From NCBI RefSeq assembly GCF_022701215.1, contig NZ_CP089976.1, forward strand, positions 1,950,001 to 1,982,000: a stretch of 32,000 nucleotides of DNA, written 5' to 3'. Below the pieces are notes generated by a model. It searched no databases. It saw nothing but the letters and a program-made list of their open reading frames with translations, and had not been told where the DNA came from. This DNA comes from Moraxella nasovis (GTDB taxonomy: Bacteria > Pseudomonadota > Gammaproteobacteria > Pseudomonadales > Moraxellaceae). Below are positions 4,031-30,800 of the stretch, one piece after another. How positions within the stretch are numbered: position 1 is the first letter of the stretch; every line of letters starts with the position of its first letter. The translations under genes and the position numbers were made by a program.

Positions 4031-5257
4031 ATGGAATTAATAATGAATCAGCAGGCACCTATCATCACAAGCCTTCTTGATAATGACTTGTACAAATTTA
4101 CCATGTTACAAGCCATGCTCCACCACTTCCCCCAAACCCATAGTGTATATCGGTTCCGCTGTCGTAATAATGATGCAGCCGCCTATCCATTAGCAGATAT
4201 TAAGGCAGAGCTAGAAGCACAGTTAGATTTACTATGTGAGCTAAAATTCACCCAAGATGAGCTGACTTATTTGCGTGGATTAAGATTTATCAAGTCTGAT
4301 TTTGTTGATTATTTGGAGTTATTTCAACTAAAACGCCGTTTTATTAAGGTAACGGTAGATGAAGAAGGGCGATTGTGCATAGACATTGAAGGACCGATGA
4401 TTCAAGCGATGTTCTTTGAGATATTTGTTTTGTGTATTGTCAGTGAACTATACTATCGCAGATTAGATGATAAAAAGGCACTAACGATAGGTCAAAAGCG
4501 GCTTGATGATAAAGTGGCGTTACTTCAAGAATATGCCAAATTACAAACCCAAGATACTCAAAATCCGCCATTTGTTATTGCTGATTTTGGGACACGCAGA
4601 CGCTTTAGTAAGGCGTGGCATTATCATGTGGTTGAGACTTTGGCTAAGTCATGCCCATCTGTTTTTCGTGGCACTTCTAATGTATATTTAGCAAAACAGC
4701 TGGATATTACGCCGATTGGTACGATGGCACATGAATTTATGCAGGCATTTCAAGCATTAGACGTTCGCCTAAGAGACAGCCAAAAGGCAGCACTAGAATG
4801 CTGGGTGCGTGAATATCGTGGCGACCTAGGTATTGCACTGACAGATGTTGTTGGGATGGATGCGTTTTTGCGTGATTTTGACTTATATTTTGCCAAGCTC
4901 TTTGATGGGCTGCGTCATGACAGTGGCAACCCGTATGAGTGGGGTGATAAGGCGATTCATCATTATAATAAACTAAAAATAGACCCAAAAACCAAAAGCC
5001 TAACTTTTAGTGATGGTTTGACGATTGAAAAGGCGTGGGATTTACATCAATATTTTAAGCAAAGAATAAAAACGGCATTTGGCATTGGCACAAATTTAAC
5101 AAACGACATGGGTGTAACTCAGTTAAACATCGTTTTAAAACTTGTACAATGTAACGGTCAGCCTGTCGCTAAACTGTCTGACAGCATTGGCAAGACCATG
5201 ATTCAAGATGAAACGTATTTGGCATATTTACGCCAAGTGTTTGAAATCACGCCTTAA
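4031..5257 (+). CDS. pncB: Nicotinate phosphoribosyltransferase
   Basis: The N-terminus …[18 protein letters not shown]…, then …FGTRRR… and …[10 protein letters not shown]…, are typical PncB blocks. The start could be the ATG at 4043 (MNQQ…). Confidence 0.9.
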
Positions 5258-24474: not shown

Positions 24475-25131
24475 ATGAAAACCATCCACTTTTACGGCAT
24501 TTTAGCCAAAAAATTCGGTAAAACCTTTGAGCTAGATGTTAAGACCGCGTTTGAGGCAACCCACGCCCTAGCGTGTCAAATACCTGCCTTTAAAGCATTC
24601 ATGGAACAAAGTGGCGTAAATTTAGCCGTATTTTTAGGCGATAAGGTGTTAAAAAACAACATCAATGAAAATGAAATCAACAACCAAACCGCCAAATCTG
24701 ACATTCATATCGTGCCACAAATTGAAGGGGCTGGCGGTAAGGTTGGCGGTATTTTACAAACGGTGGCAGGGATTGCGATGATTGGTGTTGGCGTATTTTC
24801 TACGACTATTACGGCAGGGGCGTCATCTGCCTTAATCGGTGTTGGTGCAGGTCTTTTGATGGGCGGTGTCTCAAGCCTACTTATGCCCACGCCAAAGCAT
24901 GAACCTGATGACCCTGACGGTAATAAAGCCAATAACGGCTTTGGGGCAGCGGTTACCACAGTAGCACAAGGCAACCCTGTACCCATCCTTTATGGCGAGC
25001 GTGAGATTGGTGGATTTGTAATATCAGCTTCGGTATATGCCCAAGATAAGATGATACAAGGGGTCGTTATGACAACGTTACACAATGCAGCTACTGACCT
25101 TATTAAAAAAGCATTTAAAGGTAAAGGGTAA
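24475..25131 (+). CDS. Tail assembly protein I (gpI-like)
   Basis: MKTIHFYG.LAKKFG..FELDV.T..EA..AL..Q.P.F…, a central Gly/Ala-rich hydrophobic stretch, and …N.…G.PVPILYGE…GG.VIS as in Lambda_tail_I. Confidence 0.85.
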   Translation: MKTIHFYGILAKKFGKTFELDVKTAFEATHALACQIPAFKAFMEQSGVNLAVFLGDKVLKNNINENEINNQTAKSDIHIVPQIEGAGGKVGGILQTVAGIAMIGVGVFSTTITAGASSALIGVGAGLLMGGVSSLLMPTPKHEPDDPDGNKANNGFGAAVTTVAQGNPVPILYGEREIGGFVISASVYAQDKMIQGVVMTTLHNAATDLIKKAFKGKG

Positions 25132-25135
25132 AATC

Positions 25136-28100
25136 ATGCAAATTCAAGGTGCTAAGAAAAAAAAAGACGCCAAGCCAAACATCGCCAAAGACACCGCCCA
25201 ATCTACCACCGTATTACAAGCGATGTATGGGCTATCAGAAGGTGAAGTGGCAGGGCTGGTGGACGGCGGTAAATCTATTAAATTAGATGGCACGCCTATC
25301 ATCAATGACAATGGCGAGCCTAACTTTGATGGCGTGGAATGGTCGTATCGTGCTGGTACATTGGACCAAACACACATTGACGGCTTTAATGCGGTTGAAA
25401 ACGAGATTGGCGTGGGCGTTGAGCTAAATAGTTCACGTGATTTTGTCAAAGAGATTACCAATACCCAGCTGTCTGCTGTGGTGGTTCGCATTGGCTTTAA
25501 TGGTTTATACAAAACGCATGATAACGGCGATGTGGGGGCTTATCGCATTGATTATGCCATTGATTTACAAACTGATAACGGGGCGTATTTGACCGTATTA
25601 GATACCTTTATTGACGAAAAAGCGTCGCAAGGCTATCAAAAAAGCCATAGAATCAACCTGCCAAAAGCTAAAAACCATTGGACAATCCGAGTTCGTAGAA
25701 AAACGCCCAACCAAAACAGCGAGCTTATCGGCGATAAAATGCGCATTATCGCTTTGACCGAAGTTGTGGACGCAAAATTACGCTATCCTTGCACCGCCCT
25801 ACTTGCCCTAAAATATGACGCAAATACCTTTGGTAATATTGCCAAATTATCGGTGCGTATGCGTGGCATGATTATCCAAGTACCTACCAATTATGACCCT
25901 GTAACACGCATTTATACAGGGCTTTGGGACGGCAGATTTAAGATGGCGTATTCTGATAACCCTGCATGGGTGCTATACGACATCTGCACGCATACACGAT
26001 ATGGGCTGGGCAATCGGCTAGATGGCAAAGTAGATAAATGGAGCTTGTACCAATTAGCCCAGTACTGCGATGAGCTGGTGGACGATGGGCGTGGCGGACG
26101 TGAACCACGTTTTCGTGTCAATGTGTATATTCAGCAAGCCCAAAATGCGTTTAGCGTTTTACAAAACCTATCATCTATCTTTCGTGCGATGAGCTTTTGG
26201 GACGGCGAAAAAATCGTCTTTGACGCTGACACGCCAAAAGAGCCGAGTTATCATTTTAATACGGCAAACGTGGTCAATGGCGAGTTTGTTTATACAGGCA
26301 CACGAGCAAGAGACCGCCACACCATCGCCCAAATTGCTTATGATGACCCTGACAATGACTTTAAGACCGATTATGTTCACGTTAAAGATGAACAAGCGAT
26401 AGCCAAATACGGCATACGTATCGTTAAGATTAACGCCTTTGGCTGTACCAGTCGCACCCAAGCCATCAGAGCAGGACGCTGGGCGTTATTATCCGAGCAG
26501 ATGCAAACACAAACGGTAAGCTTTAGCGTAGGGCTTGACGGCTTTATCCCAAAAGTGGGCGATGTGATTAGTATTACCGATAACCGCCGCGCTGGTCTTA
26601 GTGGGCGGATTGTGGGGTCGGCTAATTTGGTTGAAAGCATGACCCCTACCACCACATCTAATCATCTGATTGTGGGCTTGGCATTAAAGCAAGCTTTTAA
26701 TGATGGCGATAAAGTTACCATCAGCCTTAGTGCCACCGATGGTGAATATCTGATTTATAATTCAGAGTCAGCGGCGGCAAACGAGATTGGTCGCATAAAC
26801 GTGGTAGATGGCACAGCTCGTGCTGTGATGACGTGGAACGTGGGGAAAAGTGGCAACAGTCATTTGTATATTTATCGCACAAGCACACGCCAAGAACGCA
26901 CCATCAATCAAGTTACCCTAACCGCCACCAAGACACGCCATGTCGTACTAGACCGCACCCCCAAAGACCAAGATAGCATCATCGTAGGCGGTCGCACATT
27001 AAGCGTTGAAAGCATAAACGGCAATGAGCTACTGCTTAGCGATAAAGTGAATATTGGCGATGTGTGGAGCATGGGTGGGGCAGATAATTACCGCATTTTG
27101 CACATGACGCATAACGATGACCACACCTTTAGCATCACCGCGTTGCAGTATGAAATCGCTAAATTTAGCGTAGCAGAACACGGCTACACCATACCGCCTA
27201 AGCCTGTTAAAGTGCATGAGCAGGTACTTACCGCACCGTCATCTGTCAATATCAGCCAGTTTAACTACACGCACCAAGGCTTAAATCAAATCAAAATCAC
27301 CATTGATTATTCACAAGTCTTAGCAGCAGATTACTATGTCGTAGAATACAATAAAGACGGCACAGGCTGGAAGCTATTAGGTGAAACGACCGCTACTAGT
27401 ATTGATATTGATAACGCAGTAGCAGGTGAATATCTGGCACGAGTAAAAGCGGTGGACGGCTTTGGCAACAGCAGTCGCTATACGCTAAGCCATCAGACCA
27501 CCATCACCGATAAAACCGCACCGCCTAAGCCATTATCAAGCTTTAGCGGTAAAGGCATATTATTTGGCATAGATTTATCATGGCAATATTCTGATGATAC
27601 AGACATTGCCTTTGCCGAGATTGAGGTGAGTGATGATAAGCAAACAACTAGCATTCTTGGGCAATATGCCTATCCGACCAACACGGCTAATATTACAGGC
27701 TTACAAGGCAATCTGACACGCCATTACCGTGCAAGGTCGGTGGATAAGCTGGGCAATGTGAGTACTTGGAGCGAGTGGCAAACGATTACCACGTCTGCTG
27801 ATACCAGCCAGATTTTATCGCTATTATCTGATGACATCACAGGCGATATGCTAGATAATGCGTTGCGTGGTAAGATTAACACCGCCTATGATAAGAGCGG
27901 ACAAAATGAGACGAATCTTGCGACAGAAATCCAAAACCGCACGGCAGCCATCAATCAAGAAATCCAAAACCGCACGCAAGCCATCAATGCCAAAACAGGC
28001 GAAGTGCGTGGGCTGTTAAACGGACTGCAAACAGGCTTAACCCAGCGTATTGATGATGTCAGCGACGCCAACCGCCAAACCTTATCAGAGCTAAATGGCT

Positions 28101-29788
28101 ACAAGACGGCTAATGATAGGGCTGTAGCAGGGGTAGTACAGCAGGTAAACGCCATTAGTGATAACACACAGGCGGCATCATCACGGCTTGATGGCTTGCA
28201 ATCACGCTTTGATGGGGTGCTTAATTCTAAAAACTTATTACAAAATACCACAAATAGTACAACGGACCAGTTTTTGGTGGCAAGTTATCCCATCGTAAAA
28301 AACATAGCTACAGGGCAAAAGGTGCTAGTTAGTATCACCACCGACCCCCAAAGTGAGCTACTTGTTTATAACTCAAGTGCAGCAGGGGCAAATAGCATTG
28401 GGCGTATCACAGCCAACGGCACACCCCAACAGCTGACGTGGAACGCTGGGATAAGCGGTAATAACGCACTGCATTTTTATCGCACCAATATCCGTGACAC
28501 AAGCCGTATATCTGTATCAAATGCAAGCTTAAAGGTGATAGATGGGGCGATAGATGATGTGAGTGCTGACTTAACCGAGTTTAAGCAGACACAGACAACG
28601 GCTACACAAGCGTTAAGCGAAAAAACCGAGCAATTAAGGGCAGATTTGGGGTCTAAGGCTAATGCTAGTGCTTTAAATAACTACTACACCAAAGCCCAAA
28701 CCGATAACGTGGTGAGTGGGCAAATTCGGCAGTTTAATTCAAGATTAAATGGTAAGGCAGACAGTTCAGCCTTAAACAGCTTGACAAGCACGGTTACACA
28801 GCATGGGCGTGATATTAGAGCAACCAGCCAGAAAGTAACACAGCTTGAAACAAGCGTAAACGGCTATAGCACCAAAATCCGTAACGTAGAGCAGTCTATT
28901 GATGGCGTGTCTGCCATCAAAGCGGTTACGGTGGATAATAACGGTGTCATCAGTGGCTATGGGCTTATCAGCGAGCTTAAAAATGGGCGTGTTACTAGCC
29001 GATTTGGGATTAACGCTGACCAGTTTTATCTGGGAAATCCTAATGATGGTAAAAAGCCGTTTATTGTGAACACAAGCCCACGCACGATTAACGGCGTACG
29101 CTATCCTGCTGGCACGTTTATTGATAGTGCGTATATTGCTAATGCGTCTATTGATAATGCCAAGATTGCCGATGGAGCGATTACGAACGCTAAGATTGAC
29201 AATGGGGCTATCACGAACGCTAAGATTGGCATAGCCCAAGTAGATACCTTGCAGATTGCAGGGGAAGCGGTCATTGTGCCAAGGGCTCAAAGTTTTCAAA
29301 ATATAAGAACTTTTGAGGTGGGTGGTACTGATGATTTATTTACACTAACCATTGATGGAATTGTTGGGGGAACCCCAATTTTAATCAATGCGTTTTTGTA
29401 TGCGGAGTTTGTCGCAAATCAAGCCATACCGATACCGCCAACGCTACAGGTCAATCTATATCGTGATAATCACGTGATATATTCTGAAATGTTCGCAGAA
29501 GTTACCACAACACCGCTGTTTTCAGAAAGCAGCGACTGTTGGGAAGAAGAAGAATGGGGAGAAAGAGGACGCCCTATCCGTCGCAGGGTCTGTGGACCAC
29601 CTAGAATTAGACAAATTGGGACGCATTCTACCGTTAAGGGCAACTTTATCCTTGGCGGTTTGGTGGATTATACAACAAAAACAAGCCATGCTTACAAACT
29701 TAGTATCACAACCACCAAACCTGCAAACTATAACGGTGAATTAACAATCAGGCGTGGTAGTCTATCCGTCATGGCGGTCAAACGCTAA
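25136..29788 (+). CDS. Host-specificity / central tail fibre protein J (1550 aa)
   Basis: The gpJ N-terminal blocks are present (…YGLSEGEV.GLVDGGKSI.LDGTP…; …NPAWVLYDI.T..RYGLG…; …RF..NVYIQ…). It also has two FN3 domains (27230-27800), coiled-coil repeats and a C-terminal …ITNAKI… repeat region. The ATG at 25136 follows the gpI stop by 4 nt. Confidence 0.95.
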   Translation: MQIQGAKKKKDAKPNIAKDTAQSTTVLQAMYGLSEGEVAGLVDGGKSIKLDGTPIINDNGEPNFDGVEWSYRAGTLDQTHIDGFNAVENEIGVGVELNSSRDFVKEITNTQLSAVVVRIGFNGLYKTHDNGDVGAYRIDYAIDLQTDNGAYLTVLDTFIDEKASQGYQKSHRINLPKAKNHWTIRVRRKTPNQNSELIGDKMRIIALTEVVDAKLRYPCTALLALKYDANTFGNIAKLSVRMRGMIIQVPTNYDPVTRIYTGLWDGRFKMAYSDNPAWVLYDICTHTRYGLGNRLDGKVDKWSLYQLAQYCDELVDDGRGGREPRFRVNVYIQQAQNAFSVLQNLSSIFRAMSFWDGEKIVFDADTPKEPSYHFNTANVVNGEFVYTGTRARDRHTIAQIAYDDPDNDFKTDYVHVKDEQAIAKYGIRIVKINAFGCTSRTQAIRAGRWALLSEQMQTQTVSFSVGLDGFIPKVGDVISITDNRRAGLSGRIVGSANLVESMTPTTTSNHLIVGLALKQAFNDGDKVTISLSATDGEYLIYNSESAAANEIGRINVVDGTARAVMTWNVGKSGNSHLYIYRTSTRQERTINQVTLTATKTRHVVLDRTPKDQDSIIVGGRTLSVESINGNELLLSDKVNIGDVWSMGGADNYRILHMTHNDDHTFSITALQYEIAKFSVAEHGYTIPPKPVKVHEQVLTAPSSVNISQFNYTHQGLNQIKITIDYSQVLAADYYVVEYNKDGTGWKLLGETTATSIDIDNAVAGEYLARVKAVDGFGNSSRYTLSHQTTITDKTAPPKPLSSFSGKGILFGIDLSWQYSDDTDIAFAEIEVSDDKQTTSILGQYAYPTNTANITGLQGNLTRHYRARSVDKLGNVSTWSEWQTITTSADTSQILSLLSDDITGDMLDNALRGKINTAYDKSGQNETNLATEIQNRTAAINQEIQNRTQAINAKTGEVRGLLNGLQTGLTQRIDDVSDANRQTLSELNGYKTANDRAVAGVVQQVNAISDNTQAASSRLDGLQSRFDGVLNSKNLLQNTTNSTTDQFLVASYPIVKNIATGQKVLVSITTDPQSELLVYNSSAAGANSIGRITANGTPQQLTWNAGISGNNALHFYRTNIRDTSRISVSNASLKVIDGAIDDVSADLTEFKQTQTTATQALSEKTEQLRADLGSKANASALNNYYTKAQTDNVVSGQIRQFNSRLNGKADSSALNSLTSTVTQHGRDIRATSQKVTQLETSVNGYSTKIRNVEQSIDGVSAIKAVTVDNNGVISGYGLISELKNGRVTSRFGINADQFYLGNPNDGKKPFIVNTSPRTINGVRYPAGTFIDSAYIANASIDNAKIADGAITNAKIDNGAITNAKIGIAQVDTLQIAGEAVIVPRAQSFQNIRTFEVGGTDDLFTLTIDGIVGGTPILINAFLYAEFVANQAIPIPPTLQVNLYRDNHVIYSEMFAEVTTTPLFSESSDCWEEEEWGERGRPIRRRVCGPPRIRQIGTHSTVKGNFILGGLVDYTTKTSHAYKLSITTTKPANYNGELTIRRGSLSVMAVKR

Positions 29789-29962
29789 CACCGCACGCAC
29801 AATCAGCTCGTTTTGGGGAATGCCTAAGCGTTTGGCGGTCTGTTCAATCATGGCGATGTCATCTATGTGTAGCTTAAAGCCCTTGGTTTTCATGCCACGC
29901 TTGGCGTCGCTGTCGTATTGGATTTGATTGCGTGATTTTGGATTTGTGGTGTATTTTGGCAT
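29762..29962 (-). CDS. Ribbon-helix-helix (Arc/CopG/MetJ-type) DNA-binding protein
   Basis: …KTKGFKLHIDDIAMIEQTAKRLGIPQNELIVRAVLAF fits a beta-strand-helix-helix layout. The RBS is AGGAAAAAG. The 3' end overlaps the gpJ 3' end by 27 nt. Confidence 0.55.
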   Translation of the reverse strand: MPKYTTNPKSRNQIQYDSDAKRGMKTKGFKLHIDDIAMIEQTAKRLGIPQNELIVRAVLAFDRHDG

Positions 29963-29990
29963 TTGACTTTTTCCTGTGGTGTGTTATTAT
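29963..29990 (+). promoter_or_regulatory. Putative promoter for an antisense (Sib-like) RNA
   Basis: TTGACT (29963-29968), a 16-nt spacer, then the extended -10 TGtTATTAT (29982-29990). It points into the peptide ORF on the other strand. Confidence 0.4.
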
Positions 29991-30058
29991 AAGATTTAAG
30001 GAGATGAGCTAGGGTTTCCCCTAACTCCACCTTAGGCTAAGCCCTTAGGTGCTTGATG

Positions 30059-30112
30059 TTAGTAAGCTGGCAGGCTATATAACACCAAGATAATCACAAT
30101 GACTACTCTCAT
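30059..30112 (-). CDS. 17-aa hydrophobic peptide MRVVIVIILVLYSLPAY, an Ibs-like type I toxin candidate
   Basis: AGGAG (30124-30120) lies 7 nt before the ATG (30112-30110), and TAA is at 30061-30059. Length, hydrophobic core and the C-terminal S-L-P-A-Y resemble E. coli Ibs peptides (18-19 aa, ending …SF(P/S/Q)(A/T)Y, from memory). Confidence 0.4.
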   Translation of the reverse strand: MRVVIVIILVLYSLPAY

Positions 30113-30182
30113 TGGTTATCTCCTGTTGGTTAATGTTCCCTTTTTGGGGCTTCCTTAGTCAAGTGTGCCACCACTTGCTAAG

Positions 30183-30210
30183 TTGGTGTTATTATAGATT
30201 AACCTATAAT
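30183..30210 (+). promoter_or_regulatory. Putative promoter for the 30278-31130 gene set
   Basis: TTGGTG (30183-30188), a 16-nt spacer, then TATAAT (30205-30210). It is interleaved back-to-back with the minus-strand promoter. Confidence 0.4.
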
Positions 30211-30219
30211 AAAAGTCAA
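30191..30219 (-). promoter_or_regulatory. Consensus-like promoter driving the peptide (and possibly RHH) transcript
   Basis: The minus strand reads TTGACT (30219-30214), a 17-nt spacer, then TATAAT (30196-30191). The predicted 5' UTR to the peptide ATG is about 70 nt. Confidence 0.5.
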
Positions 30220-30277
30220 GTAAATTATACGTTTTCGTGTAAATTGCTTGGCTTTTTTTTCGTTTTTAAGGAGTAAC

Positions 30278-30454
30278 ATGTTCATTCAAATTTATGTTTA
30301 TGACAAGACAACAGGTCAATATCTTTATCAAGACGTGGGCAATCCAAATGGTGTCATACGTGATTTATCCGATGATAAAGATTTTACACTAACCCCACCG
30401 CCTGACAACGTCAAGCCTTGGCGTTGGATAGACGATAAGTGGATTGCCGCCTAA
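30278..30454 (+). CDS. Hypothetical 58-aa phage protein
   Basis: AAGGAG RBS, with the ATG at 30278 (MFIQIYVYDKTTGQYLY…TLTPPPDNVKPWRWIDDKWI). There is a faint resemblance to N-termini of tail-fibre assembly proteins. The track start 30248 is a TTG extension. Confidence 0.45.
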   Translation: MFIQIYVYDKTTGQYLYQDVGNPNGVIRDLSDDKDFTLTPPPDNVKPWRWIDDKWIAA

Positions 30455-30467
30455 TGGGCGGTTTTTT
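30446..30467 (+). terminator. Weak rho-independent terminator or attenuator
   Basis: GCCGCC-taatg-GGCGG followed by T6. It overlaps the stop codon of the 58-aa ORF. Confidence 0.45.
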
Positions 30468-30479
30468 ATTGGAGAAAAC

Positions 30480-30800
30480 ATGACAGAAAACCAGTGGCTT
30501 CAAGTCTTAGTCACCTTGCCTTATGTACTTGTGTTATCGCTATTAGGTGGCTTGGCAAGCTTTATCATGCGACTTAATCAAGCAACCGAGCCTAAGCCAT
30601 TAGGCAAGATATTTTTAAACTTATTTGGTGAACTGTTTTTAAGTGGCTTTGCAGGTCTTACAACCTTTTTACTGTGCCGTGAATGGGAATTATCCTTAAA
30701 CATCACCGCCGTGGCTGTGGCAATCAGCGGACACTTGGGCGGTAATGCCATTAATCAGTTAACCAAAATCTATGACAACGTAATCAACAAGGGGAGCTAA
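30480..30800 (+). CDS. Three-TM small membrane protein, holin-like
   Basis: 106 aa with a GGAG RBS and three hydrophobic segments (LVTLPYVLVLSLLGGLASFIM; IFLNLFGELFLSGFAGLTTFLL; ITAVAVAISGHLGG). The holin call rests on size and topology only. No endolysin gene is adjacent. Confidence 0.45.
   Translation: MTENQWLQVLVTLPYVLVLSLLGGLASFIMRLNQATEPKPLGKIFLNLFGELFLSGFAGLTTFLLCREWELSLNITAVAVAISGHLGGNAINQLTKIYDNVINKGS

Follow-up and report, generated by a model that had tools for sequence, protein, structure and literature searches.

A probable diverged Ibs/Sib type I toxin–antitoxin locus linked to a ribbon-helix-helix gene in a Moraxella nasovis prophage

We have analysed a window of 32,000 nt from Moraxella nasovis (NCBI RefSeq contig NZ_CP089976.1, positions 1,950,001–1,982,000 of the forward strand; coordinates below are those of the window) and focus here on the 315-nt spacer between gene J (25085–29788, plus strand) and a 58-codon open reading frame (ORF) starting at 30278. 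A reading of this DNA made from the sequence alone, referred to here as the sequence-only reading, had proposed that the spacer contains an Ibs/Sib-like type I toxin–antitoxin (TA) pair, with a short hydrophobic toxin peptide opposed by an antisense RNA. Our comparison with related loci suggests, with a probability that we put at roughly 0.7, that this is a diverged Ibs/Sib type I TA module made up of three parts, in which the toxin gene is co-transcribed with a ribbon-helix-helix (RHH) gene whose product represses its own promoter, and that the module is a moron placed between J and the lysis cassette. The proposed identity holds in the form of a diverged relative, as judged by the best matches in Pfam and Rfam and by a chain of RHH-linked loci leading to recognised family members, but the RHH gene, which that reading had treated as part of a possible alternative explanation, seems to be an integral and almost universal third component of the module.

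The evidence for this comes mainly from loci in other bacteria which we fetched via the RHH protein (some 100 in all, of which 75 are distinct and have enough upstream sequence for comparison). An intact short hydrophobic Ibs-like ORF is found 59–113 nt upstream of the RHH gene and on the same strand in 71 of these 75 loci, and the linkage spans five bacterial orders; among the remaining four, one is an artefact of our threshold and the others have lost the start codon, are truncated at the 5' end or contain no module. The sequence-only reading would have been given up had the peptide ORF proved disrupted or not conserved, and we find it intact in the nearest relatives of the window as well as in the great majority of this larger set. 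Four features define the module by synteny (the ORF, a co-oriented RHH gene, a promoter palindrome, and a convergent promoter located where the RHH gene starts), and all four are found in the window.

The peptides encoded upstream of the RHH genes include MKAFQIIIVAVFILYSLPAY in M. ovis, MKTALKLIVIIALLLLSYPAY in M. nasibovis, MKFLIIFLLLLVSFPAF in Gilliamella, MFKYIILVVFLLMFSLPAY in Mannheimia and MMKLIIILIVLLVISSPAY in loci of the Pantoea type, with MMKLVIILIVLLLVSFAAY from E. coli for comparison. Loci of the Pantoea/Rouxiella type pass both of the curated family thresholds, with 109–114 bits for SIB_RNA and 33.5–37.1 bits for Ibs_toxin (a Pantoea-type copy with a premature stop scores 76.8 bits for SIB_RNA, so that the whole group covers 76.8–114.2 bits), and their RHH proteins share 41% identity with that of the window (E = 4e-13). 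The Gilliamella loci score 21.5 bits for Ibs_toxin and 26–40 bits for SIB_RNA, the Moraxella loci 18.6–19.9 and 25–33 bits, respectively, and a sub-threshold SIB_RNA match lying antisense to the peptide recurs in Gilliamella, Pasteurellaceae and Moraxella at 25–40 bits. The order of elements is also common to the E. coli K-12 and the RHH-linked loci, beginning with a hairpin (which on the other strand is the Sib terminator) and continuing with the Shine-Dalgarno (SD) sequence, the ORF, a GNRA-type hairpin and an anti-SD segment, followed by the -10 and then the -35 of the convergent promoter. It is synteny together with graded similarity, and not the direct passing of a threshold, that leads us to regard the window locus as a diverged ibs/sib homologue.

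Within E. coli, an RHH-linked copy is present in one of 5,426 genomes, that of strain D53-1, where it is located in a prophage beside holin and lysozyme genes and where the NCBI pipeline (PGAP) has annotated an 'Ibs family toxin' adjoining a 'ribbon-helix-helix domain-containing protein'. The earlier assertion that such loci are almost never annotated is therefore right for the phages of Moraxella and Mannheimia but not for the Enterobacterales, where PGAP does name Ibs family toxins.

Tests on the window itself point in the same direction. When padded, the window peptide has a single match in Pfam, Ibs_toxin (PF13956; 14.1 bits, E = 0.049), covering profile positions 2–19 of 19, and the best Rfam match of the plus strand at 29963–30131 is SIB_RNA (RF00113; 27.4 bits, E = 0.0056 in a search space of 1.2 kb), which is aligned over its full length (model positions 1–147). 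Position 1 of the model falls on the plus-strand -35 and positions 1–30 align on the antisense promoter region, while the closing helix of SIB_RNA is represented by GGAGAU/AUCUCC, which is paired both in the cmscan alignment and in the minimum free energy (MFE) folds. It should be noted that these two matches are not independent because both read the same DNA. The peptide also has the Ibs form of a single hydrophobic helix with a basic N-terminus and a C-terminal S-x-(P/S/Q/A)-(A/T)-Y, for which the C-termini of IbsA–E (ISFQAY, ISFPAY, ISFSAY, VSFAAY and LSFPTY), correctly quoted in the sequence-only reading, provide the comparison. The promoters, SD sequence, ORF and hairpins were all found within 1 nt of where that reading had placed them (Table 1).

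Several results weigh against our interpretation and are best considered together. Both family matches fall short of their curated cut-offs (14.1 versus 27 bits for Ibs_toxin, and 27.4 versus a gathering score of 56 bits for SIB_RNA; nothing in the whole window reaches a gathering threshold in Rfam), and by these thresholds the window locus belongs to neither family. The peptide has 17 aa where the E. coli Ibs peptides have 18–19, and some of its close relatives are without the SxPAY ending (they end in ISNNAW or LKSSS); peptides of 17 aa are also found in Gilliamella loci. A standard scan detects no plus-strand terminator in the window spacer, which leaves the 3' end of the antisense RNA uncertain, and this RNA could read through into the lysis genes. 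Promoter-like sites with at least 10 of 12 matches are common in this AT-rich DNA, where we count 26 in the window (64 kb of strand), and a duplex-energy test of SD sequestration across all loci gave a weak signal (mean z = -0.8). For the RHH protein, the Foldseek E-values are all ≥0.2 and not significant, the fold being very small, and Pfam has no match for the window protein, with RHH_1 matching two of 11 relatives (E = 0.015). Finally, a few loci keep the RHH gene next to a dead toxin gene, which suggests that the RHH protein has some value alone.

The convergent promoter is conserved in position and strand. We counted antisense promoters, hairpins and terminators in 38 non-redundant loci, and complements of the SD sequence in 44. 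In the stretch that runs from the toxin stop into the first RHH codons, a promoter-like site with ≥9/12 matches is present on the antisense strand in 32 of the 38 loci and one with ≥10/12 in 23, compared with five and none, respectively, on the sense strand of the same region. The -35 of this promoter often lies within RHH codons 3–5, where ..CTGTCAAGA.. reads as TTGACA on the opposite strand, and in the window it directly touches the RHH start codon, with a predicted RNA start at ~29998. In 26/38 loci the toxin SD is closely preceded by a GC-rich hairpin and a run of T residues oriented for the antisense RNA; such an element in the sense orientation is found in 3/38. The best candidate for such a terminator in the window, which is imperfect and was picked up by a custom scan, is the hairpin of the 5' untranslated region (UTR) at 30154–30182 together with TTGGTGTTATTAT on the plus strand; the overlap of about 190 nt between the two transcripts given in the sequence-only reading has to be seen as a guess, since the window lacks a clear terminator for the plus-strand RNA.

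These counts bear on the suggestion that the Moraxella copy makes no functional antisense RNA, and that the plus-strand site is fortuitous or serves the ORF at 30278–30454 and the holin gene, leaving a two-gene operon controlled by the RHH protein only. Both the missing terminator and the frequency of good promoter matches in the window fit this suggestion, as does the location of the module beside a lysis cassette in the window and in D53-1 with the promoter aimed at the cassette. Nonetheless we judge it improbable, as the site keeps its position and strand in 32/38 loci whatever lies beyond it, in most relatives a terminator in the antisense orientation precedes the next gene, and the SIB_RNA alignment extends from the -35 onward.

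Conservation of RNA structure provides further support for the Ibs/Sib interpretation. The 55 nt following the toxin stop form hairpins with z < -1.64 relative to shuffled sequences in 36/38 loci (z = -5.5 in the window). Relatives of hairpin A retain CCTAAGG...CTAAGG in Moraxella loci with compensatory closing pairs, and hairpin B is the counterpart of the GGGAGG..CCTCCC hairpin located 3' of the E. coli ibs genes; the GAAA-loop hairpin is present as had been claimed, with a stem of 9 bp in the MFE fold instead of the 5 bp proposed. A perfect complement of the SD sequence of ≥7 nt follows the hairpins in 20/44 loci and varies in a compensatory manner, with AGGAGAT/ATCTCCT in the window and AAGGAGT/ACTCCTT, TGTAAGG/CCTTACA, CAAGGAA/TTCCTTG, TAAGGAA/TTCCTTA and TTAGGAG/CTCCTAA elsewhere, and this exact-complement test of SD pairing is clearer than the duplex-energy test. 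RNAalifold applied to a MAFFT alignment of 14 Moraxella-type loci returned nine pairs only, seven of them compensatory, and we attribute the small number to misalignment of the shorter ORF of the window. The predicted sense RNA (30184–29960) has a fold z of -4.8 in which the SD is paired with ATCTCCT, and the antisense RNA a fold z of -2.66.

The peptide frame shows a coding-type pattern of substitution. In a sample of nine 21-codon Moraxella-type ORFs, the synonymous and non-synonymous differences (pS 0.65 versus pN 0.27) show the largest contrast of the six frames when read in the peptide frame, and most replacements exchange one hydrophobic residue for another. An alternative is a non-toxic leader peptide or upstream ORF that tunes RHH expression and whose likeness to Ibs is convergent, as could happen with any short hydrophobic peptide, and the sequence-only reading had acknowledged that its minus-strand transcript might be just the RHH leader. 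It is correct that the toxin ORF sits in the leader of the RHH mRNA, as it does in every locus, and the Pfam score below the cut-off and the variable C-termini of close relatives are in keeping with this alternative, but the region seems to be more than a mere leader. The peptides form a graded chain up to those which pass the Ibs_toxin cut-off in an identical layout, the gap of 59–113 nt between stop and RHH gene with its strong hairpins makes coupling unlikely, and a conserved convergent transcription unit spans the whole ORF in the manner of ibs/sib; a minority of copies have decayed start codons or premature stops, as is typical of toxin genes. Taken with these points, a leader peptide seems to us very improbable. 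A hok-like reading was considered and rejected. PADLOC has no match for the peptide, the RHH protein or the 58-aa ORF, a blastn search of the locus against the phage collection found no match, and neither did an exact degenerate DNA pattern (SD–ORF–PAY stop) in viral contigs.

The toxin promoter lies in the same position in related loci and overlaps a 24-bp palindrome which we regard as a candidate operator for an RHH dimer or tetramer. The relatives carry the palindrome as TAGGTTAACCTA or as the symmetric variants TAAGTTAACTTA, TTAGTTAACTAA, TAGGATATCCTA, TACATTAATGTA and TAGTATTTACTA. Within a locus, the two arms match as complements at 5.59 of 8 positions, whereas arms taken from different loci give 3.76 ± 0.19 (none of 2000 permutations reached the observed value; the automated anchor misplaces some sites and the covariation counts ignore relatedness), and covariation of this kind is characteristic of sites bound by symmetric proteins. 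By eye, the half-sites also track the β-strands of the RHH proteins, with KLKAFKLP accompanied by TTAGTT, KQKSFKLP by TAGGAT and KVASYKFP by TAGTAT. The E. coli K-12 loci, which are without RHH, have neither an RHH remnant nor a palindrome, and the RHH-linked copy in D53-1 carries the palindrome TAGGTGTACCTA. From these comparisons we infer that the RHH protein binds the palindrome over its own promoter.

The motif said to be shared by the two promoter regions in the sequence-only reading is real, and includes an exact 11-mer, GTGTTATTATA, at 29981–29991 and 30186–30196, but the extended copies are at 29978–29996 and 30185–30200 and differ by 1 nt from the coordinates given then. The copy at 29978–29996 is possibly an RHH half-site; by eye, no consistent equivalent of this second site was seen at the antisense promoter in other loci.

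An alternative view of the same data is that the RHH gene is a passenger or an independent regulator using the toxin locus as its leader, with another factor binding the palindrome and antisense RNA alone controlling the toxin, as in E. coli K-12. The K-12 ibs/sib loci do function without RHH, the RHH gene outlasts the toxin in some loci as described above, and the RHH-like proteins that accompany Ibs-like ORFs are very different in some modules. The linkage in 71/75 loci from five orders is difficult to reconcile with this view, and so are the covarying arms of a palindrome which accompanies the RHH-linked copies and is missing from RHH-less ones, the half-sites which differ with the RHH β-strand (by eye), and the unlike operators of unlike modules residing in one prophage (e.g., TAGGTTTAACCTA versus TAGTATTTACTA, each with a different RHH). 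We consider a passenger RHH unlikely and prefer to see it as the autorepressor of the module.

The RHH protein of the window is LU293_09540, annotated as a hypothetical protein of 66 aa, and it matches PHROG 3887 'transcriptional regulator' (E = 1.2e-22). Its AlphaFold2 model (predicted local distance difference test score, pLDDT, 87.4) has an extended segment at residues 22–32 and helices at 33–46 and 50–65, with an extra N-terminal helix at 11–21, and this strand–helix–helix order suggests a ribbon-helix-helix fold. Nearly all of the best Foldseek matches in the Protein Data Bank (PDB) are RHH proteins (CopG, MatP, Arc, ParG, VapB and MazE), with CopG the best compact structural match (root mean square deviation of 1.2 Å over 40–42 residues); an RHH profile search against PDB sequences found nothing significant. 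NCBIfam offers sub-threshold likenesses only, to YbfE, VapB and RelB, with VapB and RelB far under the cut-off; the window protein resembles the LexA-regulated protein YbfE family (PRK11675) weakly, at E = 0.008, and the Pantoea homologue does so at E = 0.0005. A profile search recovers at least 207 members of the RHH family from Moraxella species, Gilliamella/Orbaceae, Pasteurellaceae, Neisseria and Kingella, some of which are named CopG family by NCBI, and exact look-ups extend the family to Pantoea, Rouxiella, Mannheimia and Histophilus somni. The window protein was not found by exact look-up in the contig index, although it is present in NCBI. There is no terminator between the toxin ORF and the RHH gene and many loci have a clear one after RHH, so that co-transcription is the simplest reading.

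We also tried and rejected two other roles for the RHH protein. It is not likely to be the antitoxin of a type II TA pair as no toxin-family gene follows it, its 3' end meets that of gene J, and it is a protein of 66 aa with no tail beyond the fold and without a PADLOC match. A prophage immunity repressor was rejected because the positions of the gene do not fit such a role (between J and the lysis genes in the window, between tail genes and the tape-measure gene in L010 and L014, and beside lysis genes in E. coli D53-1).

Taken alone, the window is only moderately unusual. An exact 11-mer repeat inside 800 nt has a chance of ~0.1, and ATG ORFs of 14–30 aa which are led by an SD and are ≥65% hydrophobic number just two on both strands of the whole window. 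A second module elsewhere in the window was sought and rejected, as there is a single RHH ORF and a single credible peptide ORF. A spacer without function, in which the ORF and promoters had arisen by chance in AT-rich DNA, could account for promoter matches of a kind that are common in single sequences, and even for the 11-mer repeat. What decides against it is that all of the elements are conserved in related loci of different orders and show compensatory changes, and on these comparative data we regard chance as effectively refuted.

In the mechanism that we favour, a single minus-strand RNA would be transcribed from the promoter at 30219–30191 (predicted start ~30184) and would carry a structured 5' UTR, with a leader of 72 nt, the 17-codon peptide gene, the two hairpins and the RHH gene. 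The toxin SD (AGGAG at 30124–30120, separated by a 7-nt gap from the ATG at 30112) would be masked in this mRNA by the complementary segment after the hairpins, so that the full-length RNA is probably poorly translated. The convergent promoter at 29963–29990 would produce a plus-strand transcript with full complementarity to the ORF and SD, and this would block toxin synthesis, by homology with SibC/ibsC; E. coli Sib RNAs repress their cognate ibs mRNAs via the ORF and the translation-initiation region (PMC2943612). The RHH protein, as a dimer of dimers, most likely binds the 24-bp palindrome and would then repress transcription of both its own gene and the toxin gene. The toxin would be restrained at two levels, by a protein repressor and by antisense RNA, and freed only on the decay of both, after which it would insert in the inner membrane as expected by homology. 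Overproduced type I toxins of the Ibs kind kill the cell unless repressed by antisense RNA (PMC2887945), and Salmonella IbsA is reported to inhibit the Fo part of ATP synthase (bioRxiv 10.1101/2025.05.26.656083).

More tentatively, we raise the possibility that the native mobile form of Ibs/Sib is a three-component switch in which RHH and antisense RNA gate the toxin, and that the K-12 loci are relics which have lost RHH and operator. In phages, such a switch might make release of the toxin dependent on the element being lost or shut off (in addiction, phage exclusion or abortive infection) or else on the timing of lysis, and diversified operator/RHH pairs might insulate co-resident copies from each other.

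To our knowledge, Ibs/Sib is a textbook type I TA system that has been studied almost solely in E. coli K-12 and Salmonella, where its transcriptional control and purpose are open. The toxin/antisense core of the window locus belongs to this known system, and the obligatory RHH gene and operator are outside the system as described; our full-text literature search, which was incomplete in coverage, found no paper on Ibs/Sib with an RHH partner or in Moraxellaceae. The E. coli K-12 ibsA–E/sibA–E loci resemble the window in having a hydrophobic peptide of 17–19 aa with an SD 5–7 nt upstream, a GNRA-type hairpin, an anti-SD, a convergent promoter, an RNA (predicted for the window) over the whole ORF and SD, and a closing helix. 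In contrast, they have no RHH gene and no palindromic operator and are chromosomal and intergenic rather than phage-borne; the window locus is also set apart by an extra hairpin and by a 5' UTR that is longer than theirs. The RHH-linked loci of Enterobacterales (Pantoea, Rouxiella and D53-1), which PGAP annotates as an Ibs family toxin with an RHH domain-containing protein, share with the window the layout of a palindrome over the -10 (TAGGTTAACCTA in these loci), the ibs gene, the hairpin, the antisense promoter at the start of RHH and the RHH gene, and differ in passing both curated thresholds, in an RHH protein that is 41% identical and in belonging to a different order.

Similar circuits are known from unrelated systems. 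In plasmid pMV158, antisense RNAII also acts on the copG-repB transcript. There the RHH protein CopG represses the copG-repB promoter Pcr (PMC2724298). Both this system and the circuit we propose combine an RHH autorepressor at a palindrome in its own promoter with a counter-transcribed RNA, but in pMV158 the product is a replication initiator, the repressor gene comes first, and the sequences have no homology apart from the common fold. Three-component TA systems with a separate regulator include omega-epsilon-zeta, where omega is an RHH protein, and paaR2-paaA2-parE2. As would be the case in the window, a dedicated small DNA-binding protein which is not the antitoxin controls the toxin operon; these systems are of type II, in which the antitoxins are proteins and the toxins enzymes, whereas the window has a predicted RNA antitoxin and membrane-peptide toxin. 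In hok/sok and aapA1/isoA1, a distant 3' segment of the mRNA pairs with the SD and a cis-antisense RNA blocks translation. This type I layout is summarised in PMC8594479. The pairing of a 3' segment with the SD and the cis-antisense RNA are like those predicted for the window, but the toxins belong to unrelated families, Sok is located 5' of the ORF, and an RHH partner is lacking.

The comparison indicates that the toxin gene is nearly always linked, and probably co-transcribed, with an RHH gene and a promoter palindrome in Moraxella, Orbaceae, Pasteurellaceae, Neisseriaceae and some Enterobacterales. If the RHH protein is the repressor, toxin control would have a protein layer which is absent from the model organism, in a compact and directly testable circuit of two repressors (protein and RNA) and convergent promoters, and there would be a simple rule for finding unannotated type I toxins in phages, namely to look in the leader of genes of this RHH family. 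For M. nasovis, it identifies an unannotated predicted toxin gene in a prophage.

Table 1. Coordinates of features in and around the M. nasovis spacer, as predicted from the sequence.
Feature	Position	Strand	Details
Toxin–RHH promoter	30191–30219	-	-35 TTGACT 30219–30214, 17-nt spacer, -10 TATAAT 30196–30191; 11/12 matches
5'-UTR hairpin 1, sense RNA	30154–30182	-	RNA folds
Shine-Dalgarno AGGAGAT	30118–30124	-	5–7 nt 5' of ATG; pairs with 29999–30005 in MFE fold
Ibs-like toxin ORF	30059–30112	-	17 codons plus stop; peptide MRVVIVIILVLYSLPAY
Hairpin A, CACCTAAGG-gcttag-CCTAAGGTG	30028–30051	-	9 bp, one mismatch
Hairpin B, GAGTTAGGG-GAAA-CCCTAGCTC	30006–30027	-	9-bp stem (MFE fold), GAAA loop
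Anti-SD ATCTCCT	29999–30005	-	Perfect complement of toxin SD
Antisense promoter	29963–29990	+	-35 TTGACT, 16-nt spacer, TG-extended -10 TATTAT; 10/12 matches
Predicted Sib-like antisense RNA	29998–30197	+	Spans hairpins, whole ORF, SD and 5' UTR; 3' end uncertain
RHH (CopG/Arc-like) gene, 66 aa	29762–29962	-	Co-oriented, 96 nt downstream of toxin ORF
24-bp palindrome, arms TTATTATAGATT and AACCTATAATAA	30189–30212		Over promoter spacer and -10; arms 92% complementary
Second operator-arm copy GGTGTGTTATTATAAGATT	29978–29996		Over antisense -10; compare GGTGTTATTATAGATT at 30185–30200

The location of the module varies between phages. It is found between J and the lysis genes in the window, between tail genes and the tape-measure gene in others (loci L010 and L014 of our set), in P2-like phages of Mannheimia and on a Kingella plasmid. 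The terminase, head, tape-measure, J and holin genes present in the window leave the label of 'prophage remnant' attached to it in the sequence-only reading unproven. In E. coli D53-1 (L101 3359–4387), as in the window (29762–30800), the module adjoins a lysis cassette at which the antisense promoter is aimed, and this could be a coincidence or a link to lysis control. In the Moraxella-type phage contig L014 (744–1391), a HicA/HicB pair directly follows the toxin/RHH module and precedes the tape-measure gene, making a small cluster of TA morons.

Some elements carry more than one module. Moraxella prophages often hold two unlike toxin/RHH modules, which are adjacent or 11 kb apart (L097 2300–3570, L098 2300–3320, and L022 and L077, which belong to one viral contig). 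Ibs homologues were reported from Pasteurellaceae in 2010, with seven in Haemophilus somnus (PMC2887945), and we note that a Histophilus somni prophage contig (L075 1400–3150) carries four Ibs-like ORFs in tandem, with an RHH-type gene after each of them. One RHH gene of this array is frameshifted in a run of A residues, another has an altered C-terminus, and the array includes one different RHH-like protein with a palindrome of its own with 11-bp arms. Decayed copies were seen in L030, L052, L062 (Gilliamella), L082 (Pantoea sp. At-9b) and L005 (5017–5300). Some have kept the RHH gene next to a toxin that is dead through loss of the ATG, 5' truncation or a premature stop before PAY, and in one the situation is reversed, with an intact toxin ORF and an RHH remnant only.

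A few further observations concern the window itself. The RHH gene and tail gene J are convergent and their 3' ends overlap by 27 nt (29762–29788), with no terminator found for either. As the candidate operator is palindromic, it also presents a mirror TATAAT on the plus strand (30205–30210) with TTGGTG 16 nt upstream (site 30183–30210), which could be a divergent promoter for the ORF at 30278–30454 and the holin gene that has its operator in common with the toxin promoter. The 5' end of the predicted antisense RNA reads AAGGAG-ATG-AGC-TAG (30000–30012, plus strand), an SD with a mini-ORF of two codons which is probably a mere mirror of the anti-SD. The 58-aa ORF at 30278–30454 (plus strand; MFIQIYVYDKTTGQ...) has a good SD and a clean intrinsic terminator at 30446–30462, is without a match in Pfam, PHROGs, PADLOC and NCBIfam, and lies between the toxin module and a LydA-type holin gene at 30481–30800 (Pfam Phage_holin_3_3, E = 3e-16). 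Finally, a 408-aa ORF at 4031–5257 (plus strand) matches PHROG 448, nicotinamide phosphoribosyl transferase (E = 6e-14); this may be an auxiliary metabolic gene, or else the ORF may belong to host DNA at the prophage edge.

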